From IMG/VR virus record IMGVR_UViG_2925919700_000005, positions 1 through 38,422 of that record: a DNA stretch of 38,422 bases; one strand, written 5' to 3'. The notes under the pieces were generated by a model that searched no databases, was not told the DNA's origin, and saw only the letters and a list, made by a program, of their open reading frames with translations. This stretch comes from a virus (Duplodnaviria; Heunggongvirae; Uroviricota; Caudoviricetes). The position numbers and the translations under genes are program-made. This document shows, piece by piece, positions 2,929 through 37,538 of this stretch. Positions within the stretch are counted from its first letter, which is position 1. Each line of letters opens with the position of its first letter.

Positions 2929-3111
2929 TTAGTAAACCTCTGCGGTTATCTTTACTTTAATGTCATACTTCTTTAAGAGTTTGTGGAAGGTTGATTGATC
3001 AATACCTTCACCTTTAAACCATTCACCCATCACTACATCAGGTGTCAGTTCAAAATAACGCTTTGCCATTTCTAAAACGATTTCACGAGTGAACTTAACA
3101 GGTCGTGCCAT
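2929..3111 (-). CDS. small hypothetical protein (60 aa)
   Basis: AGGAGG SD immediately upstream (minus strand); ATATAAATAATAGTGAG box ~55 nt upstream. Confidence 0.55.
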   Translation of the reverse strand: MARPVKFTREIVLEMAKRYFELTPDVVMGEWFKGEGIDQSTFHKLLKKYDIKVKITAEVY

Positions 3112-3246
3112 CTTGAATCCTCCTAAATCTGGATTAATGATTTCTTAAAAAAGAGCGTTAACCGCTCACTATTATTTATATGGGGATTGTATTTTATTTT
3201 TCAACCCCTCACACTTATCTCTTATATATGTATTTATAACAGAGAT

Positions 3247-3403
3247 ATGTTAAAATGTTATTCAGATGTTATCAGACGTGTTAAATGTGTTAAACCGCAG
3301 CACGAATTGCTAAAGCGGAGAGCACGAATTAACCAAATTGATGTATATTCAATCAATTTAGCAAAAAGGCATAGCACTTTTTGCTAAAGCGGTGAGCATT
3401 AAT
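3247..3403. repeat. Phased TGTTA repeats plus two ~24-bp direct repeats (TTGCTAAAGCGG(A/T)GAGCA...)
   Basis: TGTTA recurs five times at ~9-12 bp spacing (3248-3293); TTGCTAAAGCGGAGAGCACGAATT (3307-3330) and TTGCTAAAGCGGTGAGCATTAATT (3380-3403). Confidence 0.6.
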
Positions 3404-3630
3404 TGAGCTATGAATTGTAAAGATTTGTTACAAGATTTTCTCTCAGATCCAAATCTTCACAGGCATATAACAATTTAACACGGTGATAACAATAGGAAGG
3501 AAAATCGGTAAATTTTCACTTTCAATACAAATATTATAACATATTTATCTCGAATTTTCAAGTATACCACCGATCCTACACAGTGTCAACAAAGGATTTT
3601 CAAACCTACACTAGCCCTACACTATGAAAA

Positions 3631-3870
3631 TTGCCCCTGAATTTTGCCCCTGAACCAAAATCCCCTAGATTTCACTATCCCATTTTTGCCCCTGAAACCT
3701 ACTATTTTTGCCCCTGAAATTCTGGGAAACAGTGATTTTGCCCCTCATTTTTGCCCCTGAAATGCCAATAATTGCCCCTGAAAATCTAATTTTTGCCCCT
3801 GAAATTTGCCCCAGAAAAGGATTGGTGAGAAAAACTCTTTATAAAACATTAACTTAGCGAGGGGCAAAAG
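3631..3870. repeat. Iteron-like array of ~9 direct copies of TTTTGCCCCTGAA with one inverted copy
   Basis: Copies at ~3631, 3642, 3683, 3705, 3736 (variant CTCA), 3748, 3772, 3790, 3805 (variant CCAGAA); inverted copy GAGGGGCAAAAG at 3859-3870; spacers are 10-30 bp and irregular. Confidence 0.8.
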
Positions 3871-4012
3871 CGGGGGATCGGGTGTGCATAGATATTATAT
3901 AACACATTCGCTACGCTCATGTGTAAAACCAAAAACAACAAATAACCAAAAAGATATTAGGAGGGCGTAGCCCGACTGCGCGAAGCGCTAACCAATTACT
4001 TCTAGTAACACT

Positions 4013-4240
4013 AATTTAAACTAGATGATACTAGATGGTCTTAGAAGGAATTAACTAGTTTGCTCGCTCGCTTCGCTCACTCTCAAACGTCTGCGACGCC
4101 ACTGCGTGGCATCGAGAATCACTTCTGAAAGGATTTTCTTGAAAGGGATTTTAAACTAGTTACTAACTGATTCTAGAAAGATAGTAATAATCACTTTGAA
4201 GATAATAGTAGTTAACTGGTTACTAGATGATTCTAGATCA
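4013..4240. repeat. Three copies of a ~17-25 bp ACTAGATGAT(A/T)CTAGA-type direct repeat flanking a GC-rich structured core
   Basis: ACTAGATGATACTAGATGG (4020-4038), AACTAGTTACTAACTGATTCTAGAAAG (~4153-4180), AACTGGTTACTAGATGATTCTAGATCA (~4212-4238); GC-rich inverted repeats in 3961-4110. Confidence 0.6.
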
Positions 4241-4266
4241 CTTTAATGATCATGAAAGGTATTGGT

Positions 4267-4296
4267 TATCCCTTCGGGATTGCAACCTTCGGTTGC
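4267..4296 (+). other. Two tandem UUCG-tetraloop hairpins
   Basis: ATCCC-TTCG-GGAT and GCAACC-TTCG-GTTGC back to back. Confidence 0.5.
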
Positions 4297-4500
4297 TAAA
4301 TTGCTTCCGGATTATTATTTCTCCAAAAGAAAGATTCTTATATTCTAAAGATACTTCTTCGTTTTGATGATGATTTAATCAAAATCTATGAAGGAGGCGA
4401 AGCCGACTGAATACCAATTCCTTTCAAATTAGACAAAAATTTCTCGTTATAAATAATAGTGAACTTACTTTGATTCACTTTCTTTTAGAGGATTTCCACT

Positions 4501-4953
4501 ATGATCAATACTAAAACTCCTTTCATTCTTCTGGGTCTGAACCATGATGATAATCTGGCTATGATGCATGTTTTCGCTAATCGTGGTTATAACATCATTC
4601 GTCATTCCGAAGACTCCAATTTCTCAACTGCTTTCTATGCTCTTAAACGTAATGGTCGCCCTACGGTGATCGTAGACTGCTTTACTGATGAAGGTCGTGA
4701 ACAATACAACAACATTCCGGCAATTATTGTTCGTGATGACCTGCCGTTTGATGTTCGTGAATATGACGTTGATTTAGGCTCTTACTATGGGATCGCCGAT
4801 CTTGACCAGATTATGGCTGATTATGGTAAACAACCCGCTCAGGAAGCCCCAGAACACGATGAACAAGACGAAGATGACGACGACTACACACCAATCTGTT
4901 TCTCTTCTCACGGTGGCTTCTACGGTTACGATGAAGGCTTAGATATGCTGTAA
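4501..4953 (+). CDS. hypothetical acidic protein (150 aa); N-terminal pattern faintly resembles a receiver/flavodoxin-like fold
   Basis: GAGGA SD; CGTTATAAATAATAGTGA box 40 nt upstream; C-terminal run EHDEQDEDDDDY; alternating hydrophobic strands FILLG / YNIIRH / VIVDC / PAIIV. Confidence 0.6.
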   Translation: MINTKTPFILLGLNHDDNLAMMHVFANRGYNIIRHSEDSNFSTAFYALKRNGRPTVIVDCFTDEGREQYNNIPAIIVRDDLPFDVREYDVDLGSYYGIADLDQIMADYGKQPAQEAPEHDEQDEDDDDYTPICFSSHGGFYGYDEGLDML

Positions 4954-4975
4954 TTTAGGTCAACCCTTTGGCGTC

Positions 4976-5017
4976 TTGTCAAGGGGTATTGACAAAATTT
5001 TCTGACTTTTTTATGAT
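4976..5017 (+). promoter_or_regulatory. Sigma70-like promoter (TTGACA, 17 bp spacer, TATGAT) overlapped by an inverted repeat TTGTCAA-N6-TTGACAA
   Basis: -35 TTGACA at 4989-4994, -10 TATGAT at 5012-5017; inverted TTGTCAA at 4976-4982; further TTGACA-like boxes at 5026 and 5045. Confidence 0.45.
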
Positions 5018-5073
5018 TATCGCACTTGACAATTTTGAACCTATTTGACCTAGATTTGTAAAGAGGATGTAAC

Positions 5074-5406
5074 ATGAAAGAATTTACCATCACTAAATCC
5101 CTGTATGACTGGACTGTTAAAATCTCCGGCAAAACCGTTTCTGTAAGCCCTAGCCATGTAGAAAATGATTGGGGCGTATCCCGTGAAACTATCTCCCGTA
5201 GTATGCATGTTCCGTTTGATCTGATGTCCTTAACTGGTATTCATGCAATGCTGGAAGTTCGCGAACAATTCGAAGCTGGTAATCACAATGCGACTCCAGT
5301 TAGCAATCACCTTCTTACTAATGAAGAACGTGAAATCATCGAAAACTGGCGTTATGAATATGCGATTCCTTATTATGAAGAAGACCAAGTAGAAATCGAT
5401 TGGTAA
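5074..5406 (+). CDS. hypothetical protein (110 aa)
   Basis: AGAGGA SD; compact ORF; no recognisable family. Confidence 0.6.
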   Translation: MKEFTITKSLYDWTVKISGKTVSVSPSHVENDWGVSRETISRSMHVPFDLMSLTGIHAMLEVREQFEAGNHNATPVSNHLLTNEEREIIENWRYEYAIPYYEEDQVEIDW

Positions 5407-5502
5407 TAAATTTCTATCATAAATAAAAATGTTCCGGTGGTGATGCCGGAACTAGGAGGACCAATATCATTATCGCAAAACCGTTTAAGGGGAATTACTA
5501 CT

Positions 5503-6333
5503 ATGAATACTGTTACTGCTATGAATACTGCTGTTAAAACTGCTTCCGTGTCTCTGGTTGTTGATAACACCAAACCGCTGACCATGTCTACTTTGCAGAT
5601 CGCGCAAATGATGGATCGCGTAGACCGCCACCGTGATATTAAGCGAACTGTTGACCGTCTCGTTTCTTCCGGTGTAATTGTCCACACGCCAACGGCGCGC
5701 GAACAACTGGAAGATAAATTTGGTCGTTCTCGTGAAATTGAAGTTTATCTTCTTGATGAACGTTCGTCATATATTGTTGTTGCTCAAATTTCGCCAGAAT
5801 TTACCGCTTTTATCGTTGATGAATGGAAGCGACTGAAAGAAGAAAATGAAAAACTTCGCTCTACTCCGGTTAACCCGTATGCAGACTTTGAAGAAACCGA
5901 TTGGATCGAACTGGCATTAAAGAAAACTCGCGAAAATAAAAAGCTGATTGAACTTCATGTTCGCAAATCCGTAGATAGCCATTCAATGACCCGTCTGTTA
6001 GGAGCTAAAAAGGGCGCTACGAAGGTTAAAGAAGCACTGACGGCCTTGCGTACTGCTGGCTACATTGAGCGCGTCTACGATGAAAATAACAAGCCGTGTG
6101 GGTATGTTGCTAATGACTCTTCTCTGTCTTTCTGCCGCATGAATGCTCACTACCAACTTGAGTTTACTGTTGATGTTCTTCCTGTGCTGGTTGAATTGGG
6201 TGTTCTGGAAGAAGAACAAAAAGCAACTCTGAATCTTCCTAAGCCGAACAACACTATTCTGATTCAAAATAAAGCTGCTAAACAGATTCGTGAATCAGGT
6301 AACGTAATTTCCCTTGTTGATTTTGGGATCTGA
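5503..6333 (+). CDS. Rha-family phage regulatory protein / antirepressor-like
   Basis: N-terminal segment LTMSTLQIAQMMDRVDRHRDIKRTVDRL matches the Rha-type DNA-binding pattern as I recall it; start chosen at ATG 5503 (AAGGGG SD) rather than the track's GTG 5437. Confidence 0.55.
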   Translation: MNTVTAMNTAVKTASVSLVVDNTKPLTMSTLQIAQMMDRVDRHRDIKRTVDRLVSSGVIVHTPTAREQLEDKFGRSREIEVYLLDERSSYIVVAQISPEFTAFIVDEWKRLKEENEKLRSTPVNPYADFEETDWIELALKKTRENKKLIELHVRKSVDSHSMTRLLGAKKGATKVKEALTALRTAGYIERVYDENNKPCGYVANDSSLSFCRMNAHYQLEFTVDVLPVLVELGVLEEEQKATLNLPKPNNTILIQNKAAKQIRESGNVISLVDFGI

Positions 6334-6339
6334 TTAATC

Positions 6340-6374
6340 GCCCGGCGCATAATTGCGCTGGGCTTTTTGTTTTT
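6340..6374 (+). terminator. Rho-independent terminator
   Basis: GCCCGGCGC-ATAATT-GCGCTGGGC (one G-U pair) followed by TTTTTGTTTTT. Confidence 0.7.
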
Positions 6375-6508: not shown

Positions 6509-6742
6509 TCAAAAACCTGTTGCTTCTACGATCTGACCATCACCGATCTGAACATAGAATTTAATGTCTAACTTCTTAATATTCTTATAGAATTGGGCGA
6601 TTGAGATCCCATGTTCACTAAGAATCTGTTCTTTCGCTTCCTTACCACGATCCGCTGTATAATAAGCGTAGGCAATATCAGCCATTTGTTCAGCGTTAAA
6701 ACGGGCAGGACGACCGCGAGTAGCTTTAGTAGTCATAGTCAT
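6509..6742 (-). CDS. small basic protein with RGRP (AT-hook-like) motif; putative DNA-binding
   Basis: GGAGA SD; N-terminus MTMTTKATRGRPARF. Confidence 0.5.
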   Translation of the reverse strand: MTMTTKATRGRPARFNAEQMADIAYAYYTADRGKEAKEQILSEHGISIAQFYKNIKKLDIKFYVQIGDGQIVEATGF

Positions 6743-6770: not shown

Positions 6771-7373
6771 TTATTTAGAGGACTTACATTTTATCGGAAA
6801 AAGTTCTCCATCGTCAATACTCATAAAGAACTCTGCCTTAATCCCGTACTTCTTCAACCGTGAATAGTATGTACCCCGACTTATATCAACCTTGCGAAGC
6901 ACTTCAAAGAACCCTTTAGGATCGTTGTAATAGTGGCTATAACGCACGTTAGCGAGTTCAACGAATAGTTCCCTTGTATCACCATAGCCTTTCTTGAAAG
7001 CCTCGTTACGATAGCGTGTAATTGCGTGATTCAATCTCTTCTGTTTCAACACTTCTCGGATCGGCTTCCACTGCAACCGATAGATAGGACCGTCATCCAC
7101 TCGATAATAACGCTTGATATCAAAATCAAACCAATCTCGGACTCTCCGAAACTCTGTATGTGATGTTCTATGCTTCTTAAAGAAGTTGTGAACGTCTGTA
7201 TAACCATTATCGCGGTAAAACTCTATTAAAATCTCTTTCGCTTCCTCACGACTAAAGCCAGATGTTGTGTAGTCGGTTTTTAAATGCTTATGCTTAACTG
7301 GTAAACGATATTCATGATCGGTACAAGACAAGGCTAATTCTAATTCATCTCTTTGTTGCTGATTAATTAGCAT
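6771..7373 (-). CDS. hypothetical protein (200 aa), transcribed divergently from the terminase large subunit gene
   Basis: AAGGGGGG SD upstream of the ATG (minus strand); basic and Tyr/Arg-rich; no recognisable family. Confidence 0.6.
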   Translation of the reverse strand: MLINQQQRDELELALSCTDHEYRLPVKHKHLKTDYTTSGFSREEAKEILIEFYRDNGYTDVHNFFKKHRTSHTEFRRVRDWFDFDIKRYYRVDDGPIYRLQWKPIREVLKQKRLNHAITRYRNEAFKKGYGDTRELFVELANVRYSHYYNDPKGFFEVLRKVDISRGTYYSRLKKYGIKAEFFMSIDDGELFPIKCKSSK

Positions 7374-7458: not shown

Positions 7459-9363
7459 ATGAAACTGATTTCAAATAAGGCAAAATTAAAAAAGATTCTT
7501 AAAAATATCTCTGCGGCAATTCGCCCACCTAAAACGATGAAACCTAGCGAATGGGTAGAGGCTAATGTAGTTGCAACCGATGGTGTTAAAGCCGGATCGC
7601 TAATTAAATTGCATCCCTTCCAACGTGGAATGATGGACGCGATCACCGAAGACCGTAGAAAAATTGTGTTTAAATGTTCGGCACAGTTGGGTAAGACCAT
7701 GATTCTTAACGGAATTATCTTCCATCGGATCGCGAGTAACCCTACTAATATTGGGGTGTTGCAAAGTAACGTTAGAGAACTAAATTCTTGGATCGCTGGT
7801 AAGGTGAAGCCAGTATTAGAGGCAACGCCAGAATTAAAGGCGATGATCACCGACAAATCAGACCGTAATGCCGTTAACAACTCATCGATTATTCAGCTTC
7901 GTAACGGATCATTCATGTATTTCATGTCGCTGAACAGTCCATCACACTTGCGCGGTAAAACACTCCCTTTGATTATTCTTGATGAAGTTGATGCGGCTGA
8001 TGAGTCAGACGAAGGGAACCCGATCCAGCTAGCGGAACAACGCGCAACCACTTTCGGGGAAGATGCAAGGATCGTAATTGCTTCCACTCCAACCGCTCGT
8101 GATGGGGCGATTAACCAACAATGGGAACTCTCGGATAAGAGAAAATATCATGTCGTTTGCCAGCATTGCGGACACAAGCACGTAATGGAATGGAGTAACG
8201 TACATTTCGATTGGCATACGATTAACGGTAAATCATTACCCAACCCAGATACAGCCGTTTACCGTTGCCCTGAATGTGAAACCGACTGGACCGAAGGGGA
8301 TCGCCTACGTGCTGTTGCTCAGGGAGAATGGGTCGCCACCGAACCAAACGCGGAAGTAATCGGTTTTCATGCTAACCGCCTTATGTCTCCGTTTAGTTCT
8401 ATCCGTGCGTGTGTGGTGGACTTTGCTGATAGCTACGCGAATATGTCGCTGGCAACGTTCTATAATGTGGTGCTCGGTGAAACCTTCGATGATCTTAACG
8501 AAGACCGCACAGCCGACGAATTAGAAACGCTGAAAACTGATATTAGCCTAGACAATATTCCTGATGATGTACTGGCTCTGGTTGGTGGAGTTGACCAGCA
8601 AAAAGACCGTCTGGAATCTACCTTGCTGGGTATTTCTCGTAAAGGGCTATGCGTAGTTGATCACCGATCATTCTATGATGTGAACTGCGAACGCCACGAA
8701 TCACCAGCATATAACCAGCTTTACAACTTCCTGAAAGCGAAATTCTATACCCGATCCGGTCAACGAATCCCGATGTTATCTGCTTTCGTGGACTCATCGA
8801 ACGGACGAGCTACAAACGTGATCTATCGATTCTGCACACAATGGCAAAACCTAACAGCCATTAAAGGGGCAAGCAATGTTGATGCTCCAATCCTTCCGGT
8901 CAAGGACACAAGAACGGGTGGTTTTACTCTTAAAATTCTGGGCGTAAACAACCTTAAGACGATGATCCGTGAAATGATTAACCGGAACTTGAGAGACAGC
9001 GATCCTCATACGGTCTTCCAGATTGGTGACGTTCCTGATGACTATTGCGAGCAATTGTTATCTGAACAGTTGAAACGGCAGGGTAATACCACACGTTGGG
9101 TAAAAGTTGGTCAGCAACGAAACGAGGCTCTCGACTGCCTGGCTTACTCCTATGCTGCTTCTCGCCATGTACTCAATAAAATGTCATGGGAAAAACTCGA
9201 AGCCATCAAAGATAGTTTGAACCGTGAACCAGAAGAACCCGTAGAAGCTCCTAAATCGCAATCTAACGAGCAAATAGAAGAAACTAAGCCAATCACACGA
9301 CCGCAACGTCAAAACATCGCCAGACGTCCAAATAGAGGCCGTAGCTGGGTAACATCGTTCTAA
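7459..9363 (+). CDS. terminase large subunit (lambda gpA-like ATPase/nuclease)
   Basis: Walker A CSAQLGKT and Walker B LPLIILDEVD; Cys/His cluster CQHCGH...CPEC; 634 aa, immediately upstream of the portal gene. Confidence 0.9.
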   Translation: MKLISNKAKLKKILKNISAAIRPPKTMKPSEWVEANVVATDGVKAGSLIKLHPFQRGMMDAITEDRRKIVFKCSAQLGKTMILNGIIFHRIASNPTNIGVLQSNVRELNSWIAGKVKPVLEATPELKAMITDKSDRNAVNNSSIIQLRNGSFMYFMSLNSPSHLRGKTLPLIILDEVDAADESDEGNPIQLAEQRATTFGEDARIVIASTPTARDGAINQQWELSDKRKYHVVCQHCGHKHVMEWSNVHFDWHTINGKSLPNPDTAVYRCPECETDWTEGDRLRAVAQGEWVATEPNAEVIGFHANRLMSPFSSIRACVVDFADSYANMSLATFYNVVLGETFDDLNEDRTADELETLKTDISLDNIPDDVLALVGGVDQQKDRLESTLLGISRKGLCVVDHRSFYDVNCERHESPAYNQLYNFLKAKFYTRSGQRIPMLSAFVDSSNGRATNVIYRFCTQWQNLTAIKGASNVDAPILPVKDTRTGGFTLKILGVNNLKTMIREMINRNLRDSDPHTVFQIGDVPDDYCEQLLSEQLKRQGNTTRWVKVGQQRNEALDCLAYSYAASRHVLNKMSWEKLEAIKDSLNREPEEPVEAPKSQSNEQIEETKPITRPQRQNIARRPNRGRSWVTSF

Positions 9364-13704: not shown

Positions 13705-13995
13705 ATGTTCAAATTATCAGAATCACAATTATCAAGAATGTTCCGAAGTGCTCCTGTATTTTCGGTGGAAGGTGGTAAATCAATTCGTGCTTATCATGAA
13801 ATTACTACTACCGACGAACAAGGGGTAATGACAGAAACAGAGTTTCTATTTTGTCGTGAGGGAGACTTAAAGCAAGGTGATATTGTCATTGTAGAAAATC
13901 AGCGTTTCAAAGTTCAATACGTTAAGCGCAATGGTGACAATACAACTGATTGCTTTATCACTCTGGCAGGGGGTACACATGCTCGCTACCGTTAA
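13705..13995 (+). CDS. putative head-tail connector/adaptor protein (96 aa)
   Basis: AAAGGGGGTAACT-ATG; position directly after the capsid gene; functional call is by position only. Confidence 0.5.
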   Translation: MFKLSESQLSRMFRSAPVFSVEGGKSIRAYHEITTTDEQGVMTETEFLFCREGDLKQGDIVIVENQRFKVQYVKRNGDNTTDCFITLAGGTHARYR

Positions 13996-20615: not shown

Positions 20616-21944
20616 CTGAGAGATCCCCTCATAATTTCCCCAAAACGTAACCATGTGTGAATAGATTTTGAGTAAGCAGGGTTGCAGCCACGAGTGAGTC
20701 TTCCCTTGTTATTGTGTAGCCAGAATGCCGCAAAACTTCCATGCCTAAGCGAACTGTTGAGAGTACGTTTCGATTTCTGACTGTGTTAGCCTGGAAGTGC
20801 TTGTCCCAACCTTGTTTCTGAGCATGAACGCCCGCAAGCCAACATGTTAGTTGAAGCATCAGGGCGATTAGCAGCATGATATCAAAACGCTCTGAGCTGC
20901 TCGTTCGGCTATGGCGTAGGCCTAGTCCGTAGGCAGGACTTTTCAAGTCTCGGAAGGTTTCTTCAATCTGCATTCGCTTCGAATAGATATTAACAAGTTG
21001 TTTGGGTGTTCGAATTTCAACAGGTAAGTTAGTTGCTAGAATCCATGGCTCCTTTGCCGACGCTGAGTAGATTTTAGGTGACGGGTGGTGACAATGAGTC
21101 CGTGTCGAGCGCTGATTTTTTCGGCCTTTAGAGCGAGATTTATACAATAGAATTTGGCATGAGATTGGATTGCTTTTAGTCAGCCTCTTATAGCCTAAAG
21201 TCTTTGAGTGACTAGATGACATATCATGTAAGTTGCTGATAGGTTTCCAGTTTTCCGCTCCTAGGTCTGCATATTGTACTTTTCCTCTTACTCGACTTAA
21301 CCAGTACCAACCCAGCTTCTCAACGGATTTATACCATGGCACTTTAAAGCCAGCATCACTGACAATGAGCGGTGTGGTGTTACTCGGTAGAATGCTCGCA
21401 AGGTCGGCTAGAAATTGGTCATGAGCTTTCTTTGAACATTGCTCTGAAAGCGGGAACGCTTTCTCATAAAGAGTAACAGAACGACCGTGTAGTGCGACTG
21501 AAGCTCGCAATACCATAAGCCGTTTTTGCTCACGGATATCAGACCAGTCAACAAGTACAATGGGCATCGTATTGCCCGAACAGATAAAGCTAGCATGCCA
21601 ACGGTATACAGCGAGTCGCTCTTTGTGGAGGTGACGATTACCTAACAATCGGTCGATTCGTTTGATGTTATGTTTTGTTCTCGCTTTGGTTGGCAGGTTA
21701 CGGCCAAGTTCGGTAAGAGTGAGAGTTTTACAGTCAAGTAAGGCGTGGCAAGCCAACGTTAAGCTGTTGAGTCGTTTTAAGTGTAATTCGGGGCAGAATT
21801 GGTAAAGAGAGTCGTGTAAAATATCGAGTTCGCACATTTTGTTGTCTGATTATTGATTTTTGGCGAAACCATTTGATCATATGACAAGATGTGTATCTAC
21901 CTTAACTTAATGATTTTGATAAAAATCATTAGGGGATTCATCAG
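20616..21944 (-). mobile_element. IS10 insertion sequence, complete (1329 bp)
   Basis: Ends CTGAGAGATCCCCTCATAATTTCCCC (inside end, 20616) and ...AAAATCATTAGGGGATTCATCAG (outside end, 21944); length 1329 bp; encodes the 402-aa IS10 transposase. Confidence 0.97.
20629..21837 (-). CDS. IS10 transposase
   Basis: 402-aa translation MCELDILHDSLYQFCPELHLKRL...HGYVLGKL matches the IS10/Tn10 transposase as I recall it; start is 107 bp inside the outside end. Confidence 0.97.
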   Translation of the reverse strand: MCELDILHDSLYQFCPELHLKRLNSLTLACHALLDCKTLTLTELGRNLPTKARTKHNIKRIDRLLGNRHLHKERLAVYRWHASFICSGNTMPIVLVDWSDIREQKRLMVLRASVALHGRSVTLYEKAFPLSEQCSKKAHDQFLADLASILPSNTTPLIVSDAGFKVPWYKSVEKLGWYWLSRVRGKVQYADLGAENWKPISNLHDMSSSHSKTLGYKRLTKSNPISCQILLYKSRSKGRKNQRSTRTHCHHPSPKIYSASAKEPWILATNLPVEIRTPKQLVNIYSKRMQIEETFRDLKSPAYGLGLRHSRTSSSERFDIMLLIALMLQLTCWLAGVHAQKQGWDKHFQANTVRNRNVLSTVRLGMEVLRHSGYTITREDSLVAATLLTQNLFTHGYVLGKL

Positions 21945-32364: not shown

Positions 32365-32396
32365 AACAAAAGCGCCTCTAGTGGGCGCTTTTTTGT
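32364..32396. terminator. Bidirectional rho-independent terminator between convergent genes
   Basis: AAGCGCC-TCTAGT-GGGCGCTT flanked by an A-run upstream and a T-run downstream. Confidence 0.7.
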
Positions 32397-33886
32397 TATA
32401 TGGCAATTGTTTTAGTTGCATAGCTGAACTTGTCGGTTAGATAATAGCGGATTCTCTCAAGTGCATGTTTTACCGCATAATTTTTATGCTTGACTTTTCC
32501 GTTACGACCGAATATACACAGATGATCGATAAGATCCCAGACCGTTGCAATGTCTTTCGAACCATGTTTACGCAATGCACGACCGATACTCTGACGAACG
32601 ATAGTTGATTCCTTCACGGGATGACCGAAAATAACATGGTGCAAATTCTTAATTGAAACACCAGTAGAGAAAACACCATAGGATGCAACGCAAATGATCC
32701 CTGTTTCCCCTTCCGCTAATTTCTTAAATTCATCACGTTCTTCTGTCTTAACTCCACCGTCAATATAATAAACCTTGTCGTGTACCTTCTGTAACGCGTC
32801 ATACATAAGTTTTCCGTGCTTAGTATTGCGGAACATCAGGAATACGTTTTCTCCCTTCTTAGCGAGTTTTAGCGCCAAATTACAAGCAAACTTATTTCGT
32901 CGTGGATTAGACGTAATATACTTGATCTCTTCCGCATATTCTCTACCCTTAACCGCGCTACATTCCTCATCGGTATAACGAAGGAAAAGACAGTTAATTT
33001 TCAGTTTTGTCACCTGCCCTTCTTCCATCAGGCGGTCAATACTCACGATCTTAGAAATATCACCGAAAAGCCCGACATACTGCATTAAATGGCACTTTGA
33101 TTCTTTCGGGGAACCAGTCATGCCGATCTTAAATTGGCAATGATTCATTCCGTTAATGATATTGGTAATATTTTTGGCACTAGCCTTATGCGATTCATCA
33201 ACTATCAACATTCCATATTGTTTGAACCATTCAGGAGGCATCTTGCACGCTGATTGCCAGGTACTAACCGTGATTAACCTGTCTCCCGGATGTTTCCCGC
33301 TACCACTCATCATTGTATGAATTGCTTCATAAGGGAATAGCCTATAATCGATGAAATCATCCCTCATTTGAACCACTAGCGATGTAGTAGGGACAATGAT
33401 TAACACTTTTCCGGTGTAATGCTCTAAGTACCAACGAGACAGCATACAAGCAATCAATGACTTACCCGCACTGGTAGGAAGAACCAGCATTCTACGGCGA
33501 TTATGAATACCCTGAAAGACTGCCTCCCTTTGATACCAGTAAGGATTGATTTTATTGGAACCGGAATACACTTCTAGGGAATCAATCCATTCATTAATCG
33601 CGTCTTTGGTTACATCTTCCTTCTCAAGCAATCGCGGGTCAATCCAGACTGAATAGCCCATATTTTTAACGAAGACACCCAACGTTTTTAATAGTCCAAT
33701 TGGTAGGGTATTTTCATGCGTAAACAGTCTTATTCGTCCATCCCAGCCGGAATACTTGTAGCGGGGGCTAAACCTAGCCCCTTCAACCTCAAACGAGAAA
33801 TAATCCCTTAATTCCATTCCGATAGAAGGAGAGCAATCAACCTTAACGAAACTGTAATCTTGAAAATGAATTTTAATATCTTGCAT
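32396..33886 (-). CDS. UvsW-like SF2 DNA helicase
   Basis: Walker A LPTSAGKS, IIVPTT, DExH box IVDESH and VWDLIDH; overall resemblance to T4 UvsW as recalled; start set to ATG 33886, overlapping the upstream stop. Confidence 0.8.
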   Translation of the reverse strand: MQDIKIHFQDYSFVKVDCSPSIGMELRDYFSFEVEGARFSPRYKYSGWDGRIRLFTHENTLPIGLLKTLGVFVKNMGYSVWIDPRLLEKEDVTKDAINEWIDSLEVYSGSNKINPYWYQREAVFQGIHNRRRMLVLPTSAGKSLIACMLSRWYLEHYTGKVLIIVPTTSLVVQMRDDFIDYRLFPYEAIHTMMSGSGKHPGDRLITVSTWQSACKMPPEWFKQYGMLIVDESHKASAKNITNIINGMNHCQFKIGMTGSPKESKCHLMQYVGLFGDISKIVSIDRLMEEGQVTKLKINCLFLRYTDEECSAVKGREYAEEIKYITSNPRRNKFACNLALKLAKKGENVFLMFRNTKHGKLMYDALQKVHDKVYYIDGGVKTEERDEFKKLAEGETGIICVASYGVFSTGVSIKNLHHVIFGHPVKESTIVRQSIGRALRKHGSKDIATVWDLIDHLCIFGRNGKVKHKNYAVKHALERIRYYLTDKFSYATKTIAI

Positions 33887-34455
33887 TAGTTCCACTCCAC
33901 ACTTGCAATATTCTTTATATTGTTTAGTGATTTATTGCAGTAGTGGAATGTTTCAGTTTTGCCGTATTCAATCCCGCCTATACCCACATCCAGTAATCTC
34001 TTTATTGCTCTTTCAGTGGCTAAAGCATGTTTCATTGATGGCATTTCACCAGCAAAGACAATATCAAAGTTATGACCGGGATTGCGTACACCCAGATTAA
34101 TGCGTCGCTTGATGATTGACTTTGTTACACCAAATTTACCAATATCCCCTGATTTCATTACATAGAGATAAGGCACACCCGCTTTATATTGAAAGTAATC
34201 ACTTTTGAGACATGCACAGCGTTTACCTTCATTAAGCAGGTTGGTAGCTGATTTGTCGGCTCTATTGCCGCATCGGGTACATGTAAGAGCAATTCTTGAA
34301 TGAAGCCCTTTAAACTCACCCAGAAAGCCATGAAAGACTAACGGTAAGTCCTTCTCTTTGATGTGAGTCAGAATGCGTTGTTCTAATGCCGATGGAGTTA
34401 CAGCACGGGAGGATTTAGGAGTAAAAACAATATCTTTAGCCATTACTGGAATCAT
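33886..34455 (-). CDS. GIY-YIG-like (T5orf172-type) protein with N-terminal zinc ribbon; possible homing endonuclease or DNA-binding nuclease
   Basis: CTRCGN...CAC Cys cluster followed by YLYVMKSGDIGKFGVTKSIIKRR (GIY-YIG-like Y-x-Y...K-F-G-x-T...R pattern). Confidence 0.5.
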   Translation of the reverse strand: MIPVMAKDIVFTPKSSRAVTPSALEQRILTHIKEKDLPLVFHGFLGEFKGLHSRIALTCTRCGNRADKSATNLLNEGKRCACLKSDYFQYKAGVPYLYVMKSGDIGKFGVTKSIIKRRINLGVRNPGHNFDIVFAGEMPSMKHALATERAIKRLLDVGIGGIEYGKTETFHYCNKSLNNIKNIASVEWN

Positions 34456-34609
34456 ATAGACCTCACTTTTTTAACTTATAGGCATAACCTCAATATGGTT
34501 GGTTTGGGATTTAGGGTCGCGTATTATACACATTCAGATAGAGAATGCAATAGTAAGACAATTTTCTCTAATAAATAGTAGTGAGCTTATTATTTTAGAG
34601 GAAACTACT

Positions 34610-35785
34610 ATGAAACTTGCTTACGCTGCCGAAATTCCTTTTGTTAAGAAAACTCGCGGTTTATCGCCGGAAGAGTACCAACAACGAATCATCGCTAAAC
34701 TGGAACCTGCTTTCGTATTTGGTGGATTTATCCTACCGTGGAAGGGTAATCACACTTACTTTCGAATCTACAATTTAGATACACAAGAATATAAGGACTA
34801 CAAATTACGCAAACTGGAAGATACTAACGGGGGTGAGTTACTCCAGACTGAAAAGGCTGTATGGTTGAAAATGGAATCTCGTTGTAATGAGAAGGGAAAG
34901 AAATTCCTCGGATGGCAAGGAGAATGGAAAGGGCGCAACAAGACAAAATCCCGTGTTTTGTGCCCTGAACACAATCAAATCATGACGCCATCTCTATTAC
35001 ATGCTCTCAAAGATGATTTCGATTTTGATTGCAAAATCTGTATGGCTGAAAAATCCCAACGGGTAAGAAGTGGCAAGACTTTTGATGAAGTTATTAAGGA
35101 CAAAGAGACAATCATCAATGCACGTTGCGAGAGTACGCCTTACACCTTCAAAGGATTCATCATAAACACCCCACACCTAAAGGATGTTAAATTTAAAACC
35201 TATTGCAAGACACATAATCACGAATGGGAATCTCATTTAAGATGTGCTGATTCTTTCACTTGTCCGCTTTGCATTAAAGACCAACTGGTGCAACTGTCTA
35301 ACCGGACTTATCAGGGTAAGGCTAGTTTCTATATTCAATTATTAGATGACAAATTTATTAAATTTGGAATCACTACCCGGAAACCAGAAGAACGAATGAG
35401 AGAGCAAACCAGAAAGAGCAACTTCACTCACCGCTTAATCTTTACTCATGAGTTTGAGGATGGTTGGAAAGCCGTTGATTTAGAGCATGAAGTAAAACAA
35501 CGCTTCAAGACTCATGCAGCACCCTACAAAGATTTCAAGGATGGATGGTCGGAAACTCTGACTATTGATGAGTTACCACACTTACAGCAACTGGTTTATG
35601 ACTACCTAACCAATCAACCGGACGAGGCTAATATGTGGGTATCCCAGAAAGATGTATTTGATGACGATACATTCAAGCTACATACTCACTTCTACGGCAT
35701 CAATAAACCGGAATTTTTCTGTATTGATGACGACAGTCCTGATTTAATGGATGAATACTTTAATACTCTCTTAGACGCTGTCTAA
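34610..35785 (+). CDS. multi-zinc-finger protein with C-terminal GIY-YIG/T5orf172-like domain
   Basis: Several C/H clusters (CPEHN...CKIC; CKTHNHEWESHLRCADSFTCPLC) then FYIQLLDDKFIKFGITTRKPEERMREQ; TAATAAATAGTAGTGAG box 25 nt upstream; start set at ATG 34610 (track start is TTG 34499). Confidence 0.55.
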   Translation: MKLAYAAEIPFVKKTRGLSPEEYQQRIIAKLEPAFVFGGFILPWKGNHTYFRIYNLDTQEYKDYKLRKLEDTNGGELLQTEKAVWLKMESRCNEKGKKFLGWQGEWKGRNKTKSRVLCPEHNQIMTPSLLHALKDDFDFDCKICMAEKSQRVRSGKTFDEVIKDKETIINARCESTPYTFKGFIINTPHLKDVKFKTYCKTHNHEWESHLRCADSFTCPLCIKDQLVQLSNRTYQGKASFYIQLLDDKFIKFGITTRKPEERMREQTRKSNFTHRLIFTHEFEDGWKAVDLEHEVKQRFKTHAAPYKDFKDGWSETLTIDELPHLQQLVYDYLTNQPDEANMWVSQKDVFDDDTFKLHTHFYGINKPEFFCIDDDSPDLMDEYFNTLLDAV

Positions 35786-35858: not shown

Positions 35859-37538
35859 TTAAATTCCAAATTCCTGTAATGGACCTGGTATTTCCTCTTC
35901 TGGTTTCCAGTTCTTATCTGTCAGCATGTCTAAACATGGATGCAGAACAAGCCCGTTACTCTCCAGAATCTGCCTATCATTGATAGTTTTCAAATCGACA
36001 AAGATTTGTCCTTTCCTCGTTCCTCTTGAATTTTCTATTACAACTCTCTGGGTCTTTCCATCGATGTATTCCAGTACAAACAAGTTTTTGTTTCTGTCAA
36101 TCCTGCTACACCCGATCCGCTTTAGAGCTTGCTTAATCTTAAACCGGACCTTTAGTCGTTCCTCGTTGTAAACATCTTCTAAATCAAATTCTGCGAGCTT
36201 CTCCCAGCCTTGAGAGTCAACAGAATACATTTCCTCTTCTGCCATCTTGATCTGATTGTAGAGTGTTTCACGCTCGCTATTGAGGGTAGTAATCTGATCG
36301 GCTAGTTCCTTCGTTGCTCCTGTCATAGCAGAAAGGGCAATCAGGTTATCAATCTTGCGTGATATTTCATCAACCTGTACTTTCAACGCCGGAACCGGAT
36401 TAGCCTTATCCTCAGCAATCCAGATTTTATCAGCCAGCAATTGCAATACAGCTTTCTCTAATTGATCACCTCGAAAACTCCAGTTTGGATGCTCGCAATC
36501 AAGTCTACGTGAACGGGTCGCATCACATGTATAACGATACTGGTCAGAACGTTTGTTCGTTCCCTTCACTTTAACCATAGCGCAACCGCAATGATCACAT
36601 TTCAATAGGCCAATACCACTAAGCAGGGGGATCGGTTTAACTTCTTCCTTGTCTCCAAAGTTCCATGCTCTAGCACCAATATTTTTCTTAAGGTGATAGA
36701 ACGTAGCATCATCAATAACACGAGGGTAATAATCCTTTAACTCATAGTTAACACCATCAACAGAGACCTCCTTGATACCAATCAAAGCGCGGGTATGAAA
36801 CAACCTTTCAACCATTGCCCGTGACCATTTTGAATGCTTCTTGTTGCTTACTGCTGGTGGTGGTGCATATGTCTCGTTAAGGTGATCCAGTATTTCGGCG
36901 GTTGAACGTCCATTCTTCCGTAATTCCACAATCTCCTGAACAACAGGGAAGTACACCGGATGAGGCAGCACATAACCGGAAGTGGTATCAGTCCACCACA
37001 TATTCTTTCCAACTTCCTCGATTGCCACTGCCGGATTCTGGGGATTTTCTTGATGCGATTTAATCTTAATCAGTGCGCTTGAATTAGTACGATTGCGCTT
37101 AGTCTGGCTTTCCTCATTACCACGGATGAATAAAAGGATGGAGAACATCAGGTCCATCGGGTTAGCGGTAACAGTATCCAGCGAGTAGATCTTGTTATCC
37201 ATGCCAGTAACAATGGTTATCCCCCTACGGATTATCGAAAGGAATAACTCCTGCGCACTGACAATATCGGCACGGGATAAACGGTCCAAGTTTTCAATGA
37301 ATAGCCAGCTACCAACAGGAACGGATCTACCAATTGCATCAAGGAAACGAGATAGCGCCCCTGTTTTAGAGTTAGCACCTTTAAACGCAGATACACCCAG
37401 ATCCTGATAATCATTTACCAGTTCTAAGTCATACTTTGCCGCAATCTCTCTCGCCATCCTGATTTGTCGTTCATAACTCGAACCATCACTCTGACGCATA
37501 GACGAGAAGCGAATATACGAATATAGTTTAGTTTTCAT
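35859..37538 (-). CDS. large serine recombinase (resolvase/invertase-type catalytic domain + recombinase domain + zinc ribbon)
   Basis: N-terminal YIRFSSMRQSDGSSYERQ (catalytic Ser motif), ENLDRLSRAD, Cys cluster CDHCGCAMV...YRYTCD, C-terminal coiled coil; 559 aa. Confidence 0.85.
   Translation of the reverse strand: MKTKLYSYIRFSSMRQSDGSSYERQIRMAREIAAKYDLELVNDYQDLGVSAFKGANSKTGALSRFLDAIGRSVPVGSWLFIENLDRLSRADIVSAQELFLSIIRRGITIVTGMDNKIYSLDTVTANPMDLMFSILLFIRGNEESQTKRNRTNSSALIKIKSHQENPQNPAVAIEEVGKNMWWTDTTSGYVLPHPVYFPVVQEIVELRKNGRSTAEILDHLNETYAPPPAVSNKKHSKWSRAMVERLFHTRALIGIKEVSVDGVNYELKDYYPRVIDDATFYHLKKNIGARAWNFGDKEEVKPIPLLSGIGLLKCDHCGCAMVKVKGTNKRSDQYRYTCDATRSRRLDCEHPNWSFRGDQLEKAVLQLLADKIWIAEDKANPVPALKVQVDEISRKIDNLIALSAMTGATKELADQITTLNSERETLYNQIKMAEEEMYSVDSQGWEKLAEFDLEDVYNEERLKVRFKIKQALKRIGCSRIDRNKNLFVLEYIDGKTQRVVIENSRGTRKGQIFVDLKTINDRQILESNGLVLHPCLDMLTDKNWKPEEEIPGPLQEFGI

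Follow-up and report, generated by a model that had tools for sequence, protein, structure and literature searches.

The intergenic region that precedes the gene at position 5074 is, on balance, probably explained as a strong sigma70 promoter of a Rha-containing cassette, with the conspicuous inverted repeat over its -35 element being part of a hairpin of the upstream transcript and with operator control possible in addition. All positions refer to the window, i.e. the whole 38.4-kb stretch of DNA that was analyzed. The promoter itself is well supported as a genuine, strong and ordinary sigma70 promoter, although its activity and start are predictions from sequence, and by its predicted strength it ranks among the top three promoters of the prophage family. 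Its regulation by a protein is possible; the structural and comparative evidence for and against it is described below.

Prophage family and its regulatory region

The element is a prophage of ~38 kb with hicB as its insertion site, carried by ~1% of complete E. coli genomes; relatives occur in Salmonella and also in Proteus. This E. coli/Salmonella prophage family is uncharacterised. Among the genes of the element is one for a large serine recombinase, and the GpA terminase and Portal_2 portal set the element apart from P2-like phages. The best match of the terminase is only 44.5% identical, and a terminase search of species-representative genomes returned no matches. Among sequenced phages, neither close nor distant matches were found to the region, to the 110-aa protein or to 136 nt of intergenic DNA. 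A pattern scan of species-representative genomes produced only chance matches in unrelated phyla, and nothing usable was found in the literature on the prophage or on rha regulation.

Neither a CI/Cro switch nor a replication module was recognisable in the prophage family, and no CI, Cro, Arc, Mnt or LexA-type match was obtained among the proteins searched. The window encodes Rha and several uncharacterised HTH-like small proteins (60, 77 and 200 aa); searches of the neighbouring small proteins against Pfam, PHROGs, NCBIfam and PADLOC recovered Rha/Ant only. Known RNA families are absent from 4850-5150; the sole RNA-family match across the whole window is RNA-OUT of IS10. The leftward promoter of the family occurs in two subtypes, A and B, which differ in their repeat/operator motifs, and in relatives with type B it carries an operator-like palindrome, TTGAC-N4-GTCAA, with a variable centre. 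The 60-aa HTH protein was considered as the determinant of these subtypes and rejected, as its distribution does not follow types A and B.

A near-consensus sigma70 promoter upstream of the 5074 gene

The original prediction placed a near-consensus sigma70 promoter before the 5074 gene, and this is borne out by the rarity of such sites in the window, by invariance in 37 variants and by equivalents in distant relatives. The -35 hexamer TTGACA (4989-4994, plus strand) matches the consensus at all six positions and is invariant in the 37 E. coli-type variants, while the -10 hexamer TATGAT (5012-5017, plus strand), which is preceded by a T-run and separated from the -35 by a 17-nt spacer, matches at five of six. 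Transcription is predicted to start at 5024-5025 (plus strand), judging from the -10 position and a purine located 7 nt downstream of it; a purine immediately precedes (C/T)TTGACAA in all lineages. The predicted start lies ~50 nt upstream of the ATG at 5074, which forms with the Shine-Dalgarno sequence AGAGGA (5061-5066) the translation start of the first gene (5061-5076, plus strand). The sequence agrees with the original description of the promoter and the boxes.

Sites with at least 11 of 12 consensus matches number three on both strands of the 38.4-kb window, and TTGACA-17-TATGAT is the only one on the plus strand. Promoter-like sites are under-represented, 12 being found in the first 12 kb against 29 expected. 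Hexamers with 11 of 12 matches, the 17-nt spacer, a ribosome-binding site before the gene and conservation of the whole unit in relatives assign the site to the sigma70 class. An SOS box (CTGT-N8-ACAG) is absent from 4950-5075, which rejects a LexA-controlled promoter, and no antisense (sar-like) promoter was detected. A candidate IHF site was also rejected: it matches WATCAANNNNTTR only with two mismatches, as do 524 sites in the window, and is absent in the Salmonella relatives.

The 120-nt intergenic region forms a conservation island between mosaic genes, with 76-100% identity where the flanking genes drop to 36-60%. The lysogenic strain UTME-12 (NZ_CP157095) matches the window at 100% across 4945-5080. 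The -35, the T-run and the -10 are invariant across the 37 unique E. coli-type variants, and the promoter spacers of relatives measure 16-18 nt. The Salmonella relatives keep TTGACA with an 18-nt spacer and have an extended -10 (TGATAACAT or TGATAGCAT), which reads TG-A-TAACAT or TG-A-TAGCAT. In L065, the -35 position is occupied by TTGCAA. The most distant relatives, L063 and L064, are otherwise dissimilar and possess at the same position TTGACA-17-TAGTAT with a TG motif (TG-T-TAGTAT). Since different -10 elements occur at the same place in relatives, it is the promoter function, beyond the sequence alone, that is conserved.

The cassette and its neighbours

Upstream of the region lies a gene for a 150-aa protein with an acidic C-terminal tail (4501-4953, plus strand), which has no Pfam, PHROG or NCBIfam match. 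This family is conserved in the E. coli, Salmonella and Proteus relatives and is mosaic in its middle part; a candidate promoter of its own (TAGACA-16-AATAAT) is located at 4430. The first gene of the cassette (5074-5406, plus strand) encodes 110 aa and belongs to no family by the family searches. Its slot is variable, as relatives carry unrelated genes of 48, 57-64 or 68 aa there. The second gene is Rha/Ant-like (5437-6333, plus strand, the ORF beginning with a GTG at 5437) and matches phrog_63 'anti-repressor Ant' at 5.6e-15; its relatives match PF09669 Phage_pRha, are named 'Rha family transcriptional regulator' in RefSeq and start there at an ATG equivalent to ~5503. A strong intrinsic terminator (6340-6373, plus strand), whose 10-bp stem contains 8 G-C pairs and precedes TTTTTGTTTT, closes the cassette.

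E. coli and Salmonella share the syntenic order of 150-aa gene, promoter, small gene and Rha. A moron-like anatomy is evident: the cassette is enclosed by its own promoter (4989-5017) and its own terminator (6340-6373), and its variable first gene is exchanged among relatives while the promoter region stays constant. The product of the first gene was rejected as an Arc-like autoregulator, as it is replaced by unrelated genes in front of which the promoter is unchanged.

The inverted repeat as part of a longer predicted hairpin

The inverted repeat TTGTCAA-GGGGTA-TTGACAA (4976-4995, unstranded) is perfect in the window, its arms being 4976-4982 and 4989-4995 around GGGGTA at 4983-4988. The description of the -35 element as one arm of a repeat thus holds; the repeat itself sits inside a longer imperfect palindrome (4958-4993), of which, by the predicted fold, it is better read as a part. 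This longer palindrome had been overlooked, as had the AGGTCAA at 4957-4963 as a fifth box.

On the plus strand, the palindrome would form an RNA stem-loop spanning 4952-4999 with its core at 4958-4993. In the predicted core stem, GGTCAACCCTTTGGC (4958-4972) pairs with GTCAAGGGG-TA-TTGAC (4978-4993) around the loop GTCTT, and an A-U extension pairs 4952-4956 with 4995-4999. Within the stem, GTCAAGGGGT pairs with ACCCTTTGGC and the TTGAC of the -35 pairs with GTCAA (4959-4963), the -35 box falling within the 3' arm. The fold has a predicted energy of -19.1 kcal/mol (z = -3.52), and none of 200 shuffles was as stable. It contains two G.U pairs, so the hairpin could work only as plus-strand RNA.

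Most relatives are predicted to adopt this fold too, and L055, L057 and L065 combine the same right arm with other left arms into different hairpins (CCCCCU/AGGGGG in the Salmonella relatives L055, L057 and L062, and CACCCTTTGA/TCAAGGGGTG in L065). A compensatory change from C:G to A:U is seen in L001 and a change from U.G to C.G in L043, L058 and L059, and one-sided disruptions of the stem occur in L014/L015, L044, L081, L084 and L029. Paired cells amount to 88.9%, against 36-55% with the partners slid, and include one compensatory pair. Covariation is weak, since 200 of 500 shuffles equal the count of both-sided changes, so that the shuffle control is not significant.

The hairpin resembles a terminator in being a stable G+C-rich stem-loop that begins 4 nt beyond the upstream gene's stop codon. 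No U-run is found within 0-2 nt of the stem, where the tail reads AAAAUUUUCUGACUUUUUU (AAAAUUUUCUGAC...); a U-rich tail follows the A-U-extended stem only. The terminator scan did not call the hairpin, and a d'Aubenton-Carafa-type score computed by hand is negative. These three observations make a terminator role doubtful, and the structure is predicted not to be a canonical terminator.

The cluster of TTGACA-like boxes

The two further TTGACA-like boxes that were described after the promoter are present (TTGACAA at 5026-5032 and TTGACC at 5045-5050). Altogether, five of the 22 window copies of TTGACMW and three of the seven copies of TTGACAA fall within 4957-5051. The motif TTGNCAA is palindromic except for its centre base, making 'inverted' and 'direct' nearly equivalent for these boxes. 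In the E. coli-type variants, variation is patchy: the promoter spacer (4996-5003) and 5033-5042 vary, and the boxes are invariant.

The individual boxes differ in their distribution. The AGGTCAA box (4957-4963, minus strand; reverse complement TTGACCT) forms the hairpin's outer 5' arm, where it is predicted to pair with the TTGAC of the -35; it is invariant in the E. coli-type variants and absent in the Salmonella relatives L055, L057 and L062. The TTGACCT box (5045-5051, plus strand), which mirrors it about a centre at 5004, is kept in the E. coli lineage only and is likewise absent in Salmonella. The left arm of the inverted repeat becomes CTGTCAA or AAGTCAA in L011, Salmonella and L065, its outer TT being lost as CTGTCAA in Salmonella and as AAGTCAA in L065, and the spacer of the repeat is 6 or 7 nt in relatives. 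The TTGACAA box at about +2 to +8 (5026-5032, plus strand) does not vary in any E. coli, Salmonella or L065 variant, and its distance from the -35 is 36-37 nt despite differing flanks.

Neither downstream box is acceptable as the -35 of an extra promoter. No suitable -10 exists 16-18 nt away in E. coli or Salmonella, and for the +2 to +8 box this holds in every lineage; Salmonella lacks the TAGATT found 19 nt away, which L081/L015 do not conserve either. Divergent promoters from the minus-strand boxes also lack a -10. The 5' untranslated region has no significant structure (z = +0.7). The invariant TTGACAA at +2 to +8 is thus explained by neither the promoter nor RNA structure, which keeps an operator reading alive and makes this box the best operator candidate of the region.

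A second such element is the 17-mer GTCAAGGGG-TR-TTGACA, which is constant while the left arm of the hairpin changes; this constancy also keeps an operator reading alive. No copy of the 17-mer in promoter context was found elsewhere in the window: matches with three mismatches at 13817 and 14875 were rejected, being inside structural genes, and other copies of AAGGGGT are mostly Shine-Dalgarno sequences. A similar 17-mer is present at the leftward promoter of L010 and L039, and some relatives have GTCAAGGG-TA-TTGACA, with no hairpin partner, at a second promoter as well, showing that pairing alone does not account for the G-run.

Alternative explanations

A tentative alternative, which we consider unlikely but well worth keeping in view, is that TTGTCAA-N6-TTGACAA is the operator of a dimeric repressor that occludes the -35, with the boxes at 5026, 5045 and 4957 as auxiliary operators, possibly for cooperative binding or looping, and with Rha (by autoregulation) or a small paralogous HTH protein as candidate binders. 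Dyad symmetry does lie over a core promoter element, and the perfect 7-bp arms coincide with the -35; although perfect 7-bp inverted repeats with 3-10 nt spacers are common (42 in the window versus 23.7 +/- 6.8 in shuffles), 1.2% of window positions lie within such an arm, so an overlap with the best promoter's -35 would be a ~1% coincidence. The density of TTGACMW (five boxes in 95 bp versus 22 across the window) points the same way, as do two 8-bp repeats nested about 5004 with equal 12-nt inner spacers, an arrangement unique in the window, for which even the more lenient 7+7 criterion gives an expectation of 0.2 centres per shuffle. Salmonella keeps TGTCAA and the -35 although its hairpin stem uses other bases, the +2 to +8 box is invariant, L063 and L064 lack both Rha and that box, and the type B leftward palindrome suggests that a TTGAC-reading protein may exist in the family. 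The geometry speaks against this repressor: conserved arms at a conserved spacing around a free centre are not what relatives possess, as the arm spacer varies between 6 and 7 nt, the outer TT of the left arm is not conserved, the distance from the second to the fourth box ranges over 42-44 nt, and the first and fifth boxes are absent in Salmonella. Moreover, the longer hairpin accounts for the arms, and the half-site order (GTCAA then TTGAC) is opposite to that of the type B palindrome, so one dimer could not bind both. A CI/Cro/Arc/Mnt-like protein was not recognised, nor a promoter-context copy of the 17-mer elsewhere in the window. The operator control that had originally been proposed is therefore a possibility only: the 17-mer and the +2 to +8 box are constant, while the arms are largely explained by the hairpin, the spacer and left arm vary, and no cognate protein was found. 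In a more elaborate version, to which we give somewhat less credence, the boxes at 4957, 4976, 4989, 5026 and 5045, symmetric about 5004, would constitute a multi-site operator at which an unrecognised regulator wraps or loops the promoter, and the hairpin would add a second, transcription-coupled control. The candidate regulator could be Rha itself or a paralogous 60-, 77- or 200-aa HTH protein.

It is less probable still that the promoter is constitutive and has no dedicated cis-regulation, the boxes and palindromes being chance and historical residue of promoter-module duplication or of recombination linkers in a mosaic phage, and the conservation reflecting recent common ancestry and a role of the segment as a joint for recombination. 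Identity among the E. coli variants is 89-100% across the region, which provides little depth, 7-bp inverted repeats are common in the window, and the formal covariation test is not significant. Other promoters of the phage, at relative positions of about -1430 and +1540 to +1800, also have TTGACAA at the -35, and the cassette has the moron-like promoter and terminator described above. On the other hand, variation is patchy, leaving the boxes invariant while 4996-5003 and 5033-5042 vary; the +2 to +8 box survives in Salmonella and L065 with changed flanks and a changed -10; and the hairpin is rebuilt from other bases in three lineages. Two further candidates appear very improbable. One is an activator site of the P2 Ogr / P4 Delta type, in which TGT-N12-ACA (4977-4994) would serve a weak promoter with the -10 GACAAT (5028-5033) from a dyad at about -55. 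Such a motif is present, centred at 4985.5 and ~55 nt upstream of the start predicted from GACAAT, but its spacing is N13 in several E. coli and all Salmonella relatives, measured from the sigma70 start the dyad's centre is at about -38, the place is already taken by a near-consensus sigma70 promoter, the phage with its GpA terminase and Portal_2 portal is unlike P2, and the window lacks a small ORF with the two CxxC motifs of the Ogr/Delta zinc finger. Variable spacing, wrong position and the lack of an Ogr-like gene effectively refute it. The other, to which we attach equally little weight, is an invertible promoter or recombination site whose crossovers for a serine recombinase would be the repeats 4956-4963/5045-5052 and 4976-4983/5025-5032. 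Nested perfect 8-bp repeats do flank the promoter core, and a large serine recombinase is encoded. Yet the segment has the same orientation and is collinear over its full length in each of the 53 E. coli genomes and at every locus retrieved; the repeats, 8 bp long and 41-81 nt apart, are too short for known invertases; and the outer pair is absent in Salmonella.

Comparison with known regulatory systems

The promoter resembles lambda PL/OL2 and PR/OR2 and P22 Pant with Oarc/Omnt in its strong TTGACA -35, its 17-nt spacing and its location in a regulatory region, and further in a G-rich conserved segment that abuts and overlaps the -35. In contrast to these systems, homologues of CI, Cro, Arc or Mnt were not found here, the repeat geometry is not conserved, and the window has no series of same-sequence operators elsewhere. 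The P22 immI arc-ant operon shares the order of a promoter, a small gene, an Ant/Rha-like gene of ~270-300 aa and a terminator, as well as a very strong promoter that would need restraint in the lysogen. It differs in that the first gene here is variable (unrelated genes of 110, 48, 57-64 or 68 aa) behind a constant promoter, which makes an Arc-like autoregulator unlikely, and in that the Rha match is to PF09669/phrog_63 and not to P22 Ant specifically.

Like the morons of Hendrix and Juhala, the cassette has its own promoter and terminator and a first gene that is swapped among relatives; unlike them, it is located in the only plausible regulatory region of the phage and not among late genes, and its Rha-like gene belongs to the conserved content of the family rather than being inserted occasionally. 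The hairpin is comparable to intrinsic terminators that overlap the next promoter, being stable, G+C-rich in its core, placed straight after a stop codon and followed by T-rich sequence, and flanking A/T tracts can extend its stem. It differs from them by four A residues between the core stem and the first T-run, by the lack of a consensus-scan call and by an arm that contains the -35 of the next promoter. The rha gene of phages phi80/P22 is described as IHF-regulated in Pfam PF09669; the likeness here consists of the Rha-family downstream gene and a TCAA-N4-TTG element at 4960-4970.

Proposed model and its implications

In the model that we favour, the sigma70 promoter, with its predicted start near 5024, would transcribe an autonomous cassette composed of a variable small gene and a Rha/antirepressor-like gene up to the terminator at 6340-6373. 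The cassette sits in the small regulatory region of the prophage. The hairpin would most likely act at the 3' end of the upstream transcript, where it could terminate weakly or partially, insulate, or stabilise or help to process the RNA, and would separate upstream transcription from the promoter. If a regulator exists, its likeliest contacts would be the TTGACAA at +2 to +8 and the 17-mer, and it would act as a repressor that keeps RNA polymerase from binding or from escaping the promoter. As leftward operators differ between the subtypes and this region does not, such a regulator would be common to all members or host-encoded. The boxes at +2 to +8 and +21 are unaccounted for in this model, and protein regulation may thus be the more important feature of the region.

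The direct value of these findings is modest: an ordinary promoter, possibly regulated, is located in an unstudied prophage. It is a predicted strong promoter of a family without a recognisable CI/Cro switch or replication module, and its predicted target is a Rha/antirepressor-like cassette with a freely interchangeable first gene. There is also a lesson of method, as a short inverted repeat at a -35 element can be the tip of a longer hairpin of the upstream transcript, and thus an 'operator' should not be called on dyad symmetry alone. If the boxes prove to be operators, the 120-nt region would be a natural entry point to the silencing and induction of the prophage, and, should the multi-site operator be true, the site would be the core of the lysis-lysogeny switch in a family that lacks CI/Cro-type genes.

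Conserved, very probable promoter upstream of the 110-aa gene

Between the end of a 150-aa ORF (stop codon 4951-4953, + strand) and the ATG at 5074, the 120-nt intergenic region contains a −35 element TTGACA (4989-4994, +), located 17 nt before a −10 element TATGAT (5012-5017, +), and the sequence AGAGGA (5061-5066, +). It also carries several similar boxes: AGGTCAA (4957-4963), TTGTCAA (4976-4982) separated by GGGGTA from the TTGACAA starting at 4989, a further TTGACAA (5026-5032, +) and TTGACCT (5045-5051, +). The coordinates and strings of the original prediction proved right when the sequence was re-read. With 11 of 12 consensus matches in a consensus scan, this is one of three sites in the whole window that have at least 11 matches, the others being located at 3589 (−) and 3561 (−). 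In every sequence feature compared here, the site agrees with a σ70 promoter.

Taken alone, perfect inverted repeats of 7 bp around a short spacer are not rare (42 in the window versus 23.7 ± 6.8 in shuffles). The arms of such repeats cover only 1.2% of positions, and therefore an arm on the −35 element of the best promoter is a coincidence of about 1%. Three of the seven TTGACAA copies and five of the 22 TTGACMW copies in the window fall within 4957-5051. Since TTGNCAA is palindromic except for its centre base, 'inverted' and 'direct' are nearly the same description of these boxes.

We compared about 43 distinct intergenic versions, drawn from prophages in IMG/VR, from assemblies of E. coli, and from relatives in Salmonella that were reached via homologues of the neighbouring 200-aa protein. 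In mosaic relatives, the intergenic region is 76-100% identical and the flanking genes fall to 36-60%. Unique variants of the E. coli type number 37; all share the −35 element, the T-run plus −10 element, GCACTTGACAA and TTTGACC without change, and they differ in the promoter spacer 4996-5003 and at 5033-5042. The Salmonella relatives keep TTGACA, here 18 nt before an extended −10 element (TG-A-TAACAT or TAGCAT); another relative, L065, has TTGCAA-17-TATGAT. In the two most distant relatives (L063 and L064), this position is occupied by TTGACA-17-TAGTAT with TGn, and the sequence is otherwise dissimilar. The near-consensus σ70 promoter of the original prediction is thus well supported as a conserved functional feature by its score and its conservation in relatives; we infer its activity and consider the promoter very probably real. 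An invertible promoter was rejected, as every genome compared is collinear.

Predicted hairpin overlapping the −35 element

Folding of the + strand RNA of 4945-5012 predicts a long stem-loop (−19.1 kcal/mol, z = −3.52; none of 200 shuffles equally stable). In its core stem, GGUCAACCCUUUGGC (4958-4972) pairs with GUCAAGGGG-UA-UUGAC (4978-4993) around the loop GUCUU, and A-U pairs between 4952-4956 and 4995-4999 lengthen the stem. The two arms of the originally predicted repeat are not paired with each other in this fold: GTCAAGGGGT pairs with ACCCTTTGGC, and TTGAC of the −35 element with GTCAA of the AGGTCAA box. The hairpin works only as + strand RNA because two pairs are G.U, and the 2-nt bulge predicted in one half speaks against a symmetric DNA site for a protein.

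Most E. coli variants are predicted to fold in this way, with a compensatory C:G to A:U change in L001 and a U.G to C.G change in L043, L058 and L059. In three Salmonella versions (L055, L057 and L062), the right arm is retained but is part of another, shorter hairpin (CCCCCU/AGGGGG), and L065 builds one from CACCCTTTGA/TCAAGGGGTG. In a covariation test, 88.9% of cells were paired versus 36-55% with partners slid; the formal test is weak, with only one pair changing on both sides and a non-significant shuffle control. One-sided disruptions occur in L014/L015, L044, L029, L081 and L084.

The hairpin differs from a canonical terminator: AAAAUUUU follows the core stem, and the terminator scan did not list it. 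Its d'Aubenton-Carafa-type score, worked out by hand, is negative. We infer that the hairpin is likely a 3'-end structure of the upstream transcript, acting in weak termination, insulation, stabilisation or processing, and lean slightly towards a functional RNA structure. No known RNA family was found at the promoter region, and no significant structure in the 5'UTR.

Prophage and cassette context

The window is prophage DNA: out of 5,426 complete genomes of E. coli, 53-57 carry it on the chromosome. In NZ_AP042682, the element (about 37.5 kb) sits between two halves of the antitoxin gene hicB, which is split by the insertion. Relatives in other genomes adjoin different host genes; the insertion was considered over window 1-38422, L033 14288-14596 and L040 14041-14160. 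The element encodes a small terminase subunit (653-1222), a GpA-type large terminase (7459-9363), portal, capsid, tail, an M15 endolysin, and a large serine recombinase (35859-37538) used by the prophage. No CI/Cro-type repressor or replication genes were recognised in the element, and no close sequenced phage was found (best terminase match 44.5% identical).

The two terminase genes are not adjacent; the roughly 6 kb between them comprise small genes, regulatory genes, 1.4 kb of repeat-containing non-coding DNA and the studied cassette. Downstream of the promoter, the cassette comprises a 110-aa gene without family, a Rha/Ant-like gene (phrog_63, 5.6e-15; PF09669 in relatives) and a strong intrinsic terminator (6340-6373). 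It has its own promoter and terminator, the genes beyond the terminator converge on it, and no good σ70 promoter lies in the 85 nt that precede the large terminase gene; the cassette is therefore an autonomous unit. The start codon of the Rha-like gene is uncertain (GTG 5437 or ATG ~5503) because of a tandem 18-nt repeat, TTACTACTATGAATACTG / TTACTGCTATGAATACTG, at the gene start (5495-5530).

Within the non-coding stretch (3112-4500), a direct repeat of about 15 nt (TTTTTGCCCCTGAAA) occurs in seven or more copies, 13-43 nt apart (3629-3817), which look like iterons, a putative origin or other multi-site protein-binding array. Three small proteins (2929-3111, 6509-6742 and 6771-7373, all −) without a match to a known family share the motif G-I-[SD]-x-[AS]-x-[FY]-[HY]-K-x-[IL]-K-K-[LY]-[DG]-I-K, resembling a resolvase/transposase-type helix-turn-helix (HTH); two of the three bear an N-terminal (R)GRP/ARP-x-[RK]-F arm, and the 77-aa protein is highly conserved in E. 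coli, Salmonella and Proteus relatives.

Elsewhere, an IS10-type insertion among the tail genes (20629-21899) contains a 402-aa DDE transposase and an RNA-OUT match (21830-21899, 97 bits). A block between the endolysin and recombinase genes (32396-35785) encodes two CapR-domain proteins and a 499-aa UvsW-like helicase; the prophage in NZ_AP042682, collinear in other respects, lacks this block, which may have been inserted as cargo or for defence. A 280-nt G+C-rich, apparently non-coding region (369-652) preceding the small terminase gene could be a cos/pac region; TTGACAA at 416-422, without a −10 element, is found at the equivalent place in relatives from both E. coli and Salmonella.

Leftward promoter subtypes

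The leftward early promoter has two subtypes. In type A, present in the window (3533-3622), three CCTACAC repeats (3575, 3605 and 3616) are interleaved with tandem near-consensus promoters at 3589 and 3561 (−; TTGACA-17-TATACT and TTGAAA-17-TATAAT), which face the 60-aa HTH-like gene at 2929-3111. Type B (L007, L010, L013, L014, L016, L029, L033, L037-L039, L043-L045, L047, L057-L059, L061 and L062) lies about 0.5-0.9 kb upstream of the studied promoter. Its −35 element and spacer are covered by a palindrome of 14 bp, TTGAC-N4-GTCAA, whose arms are conserved and whose centre varies; the palindrome looks like a classic operator. This suggests two immunity-like subtypes in the prophage family. 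Any regulator of the studied region must be family-wide or host-encoded, because the region is the same in both subtypes.

Candidate operator sequences

The hairpin right arm plus −35 element, GTCAAGG(G)(G)-TR-TTGACA, is constant while the left arm differs between lineages, and in L010 and L039 the leftward promoter has a similar 17-mer without a complementary partner. Being kept with a changed or absent partner, it is constrained by something besides pairing. Two other copies of the 17-mer in the window, with three mismatches, lie inside structural genes without promoter context. No E. coli, Salmonella or L065 version lacks the TTGACAA at about +2 to +8 of the inferred transcript; it stays 36-37 nt from the −35 element although the flanks and −10 differ, and in none of the lineages examined is it suitably spaced from a −10 element downstream. 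The E. coli lineage has two nested perfect 8-bp inverted repeats with common centre 5004, TAGGTCAA/TTGACCTA and TTGTCAAG/CTTGACAA, their inner spacers both 12 nt. This arrangement is unique in the window (0.2 such centres expected in one shuffle, even under a laxer 7+7 criterion); the outer pair is absent in Salmonella, and the inner pair's separation ranges from 42 to 44 nt among relatives.

The original prediction read the region as an operator-controlled early promoter. This reading is partly supported: the promoter is conserved, but the arm spacing of the proposed operator varies and the arms sit in a longer hairpin. An operator at the promoter is possible, and some protein-mediated control through the boxes is a tentative reading. 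L063 and L064 lack Rha, the hairpin and the +2 box together, a single contrast that fits Rha autoregulation. The 110-aa product was rejected as an Arc-like autoregulator, its slot being swapped for unrelated 48-, 57-64- or 68-aa genes behind the same promoter. An Ogr/Delta-type site was also rejected: the TGT-N12-ACA motif is present in the window, but is N13 in relatives, wrongly positioned and without a zinc-finger ORF. The IHF candidate is only a two-mismatch match, one of 524 such in the window, and no LexA box was found at the promoter.

The site resembles the classical strong phage promoters λ PL/PR and P22 Pant, in which regulatory sequence overlaps the −35 element, here a candidate one; the gene order is similar to that of the P22 immI arc-ant operon, and the cassette has moron anatomy. 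The site is not assignable to any specific operator-repressor system: the arm spacing varies, no cognate protein was recognised, and the window has no other copy with promoter context. Overall, this prophage family, itself unstudied, has here a real but ordinary kind of element, a strong predicted promoter that a hairpin overlaps, and its one invariant box at the inferred transcription start is worth footprinting.
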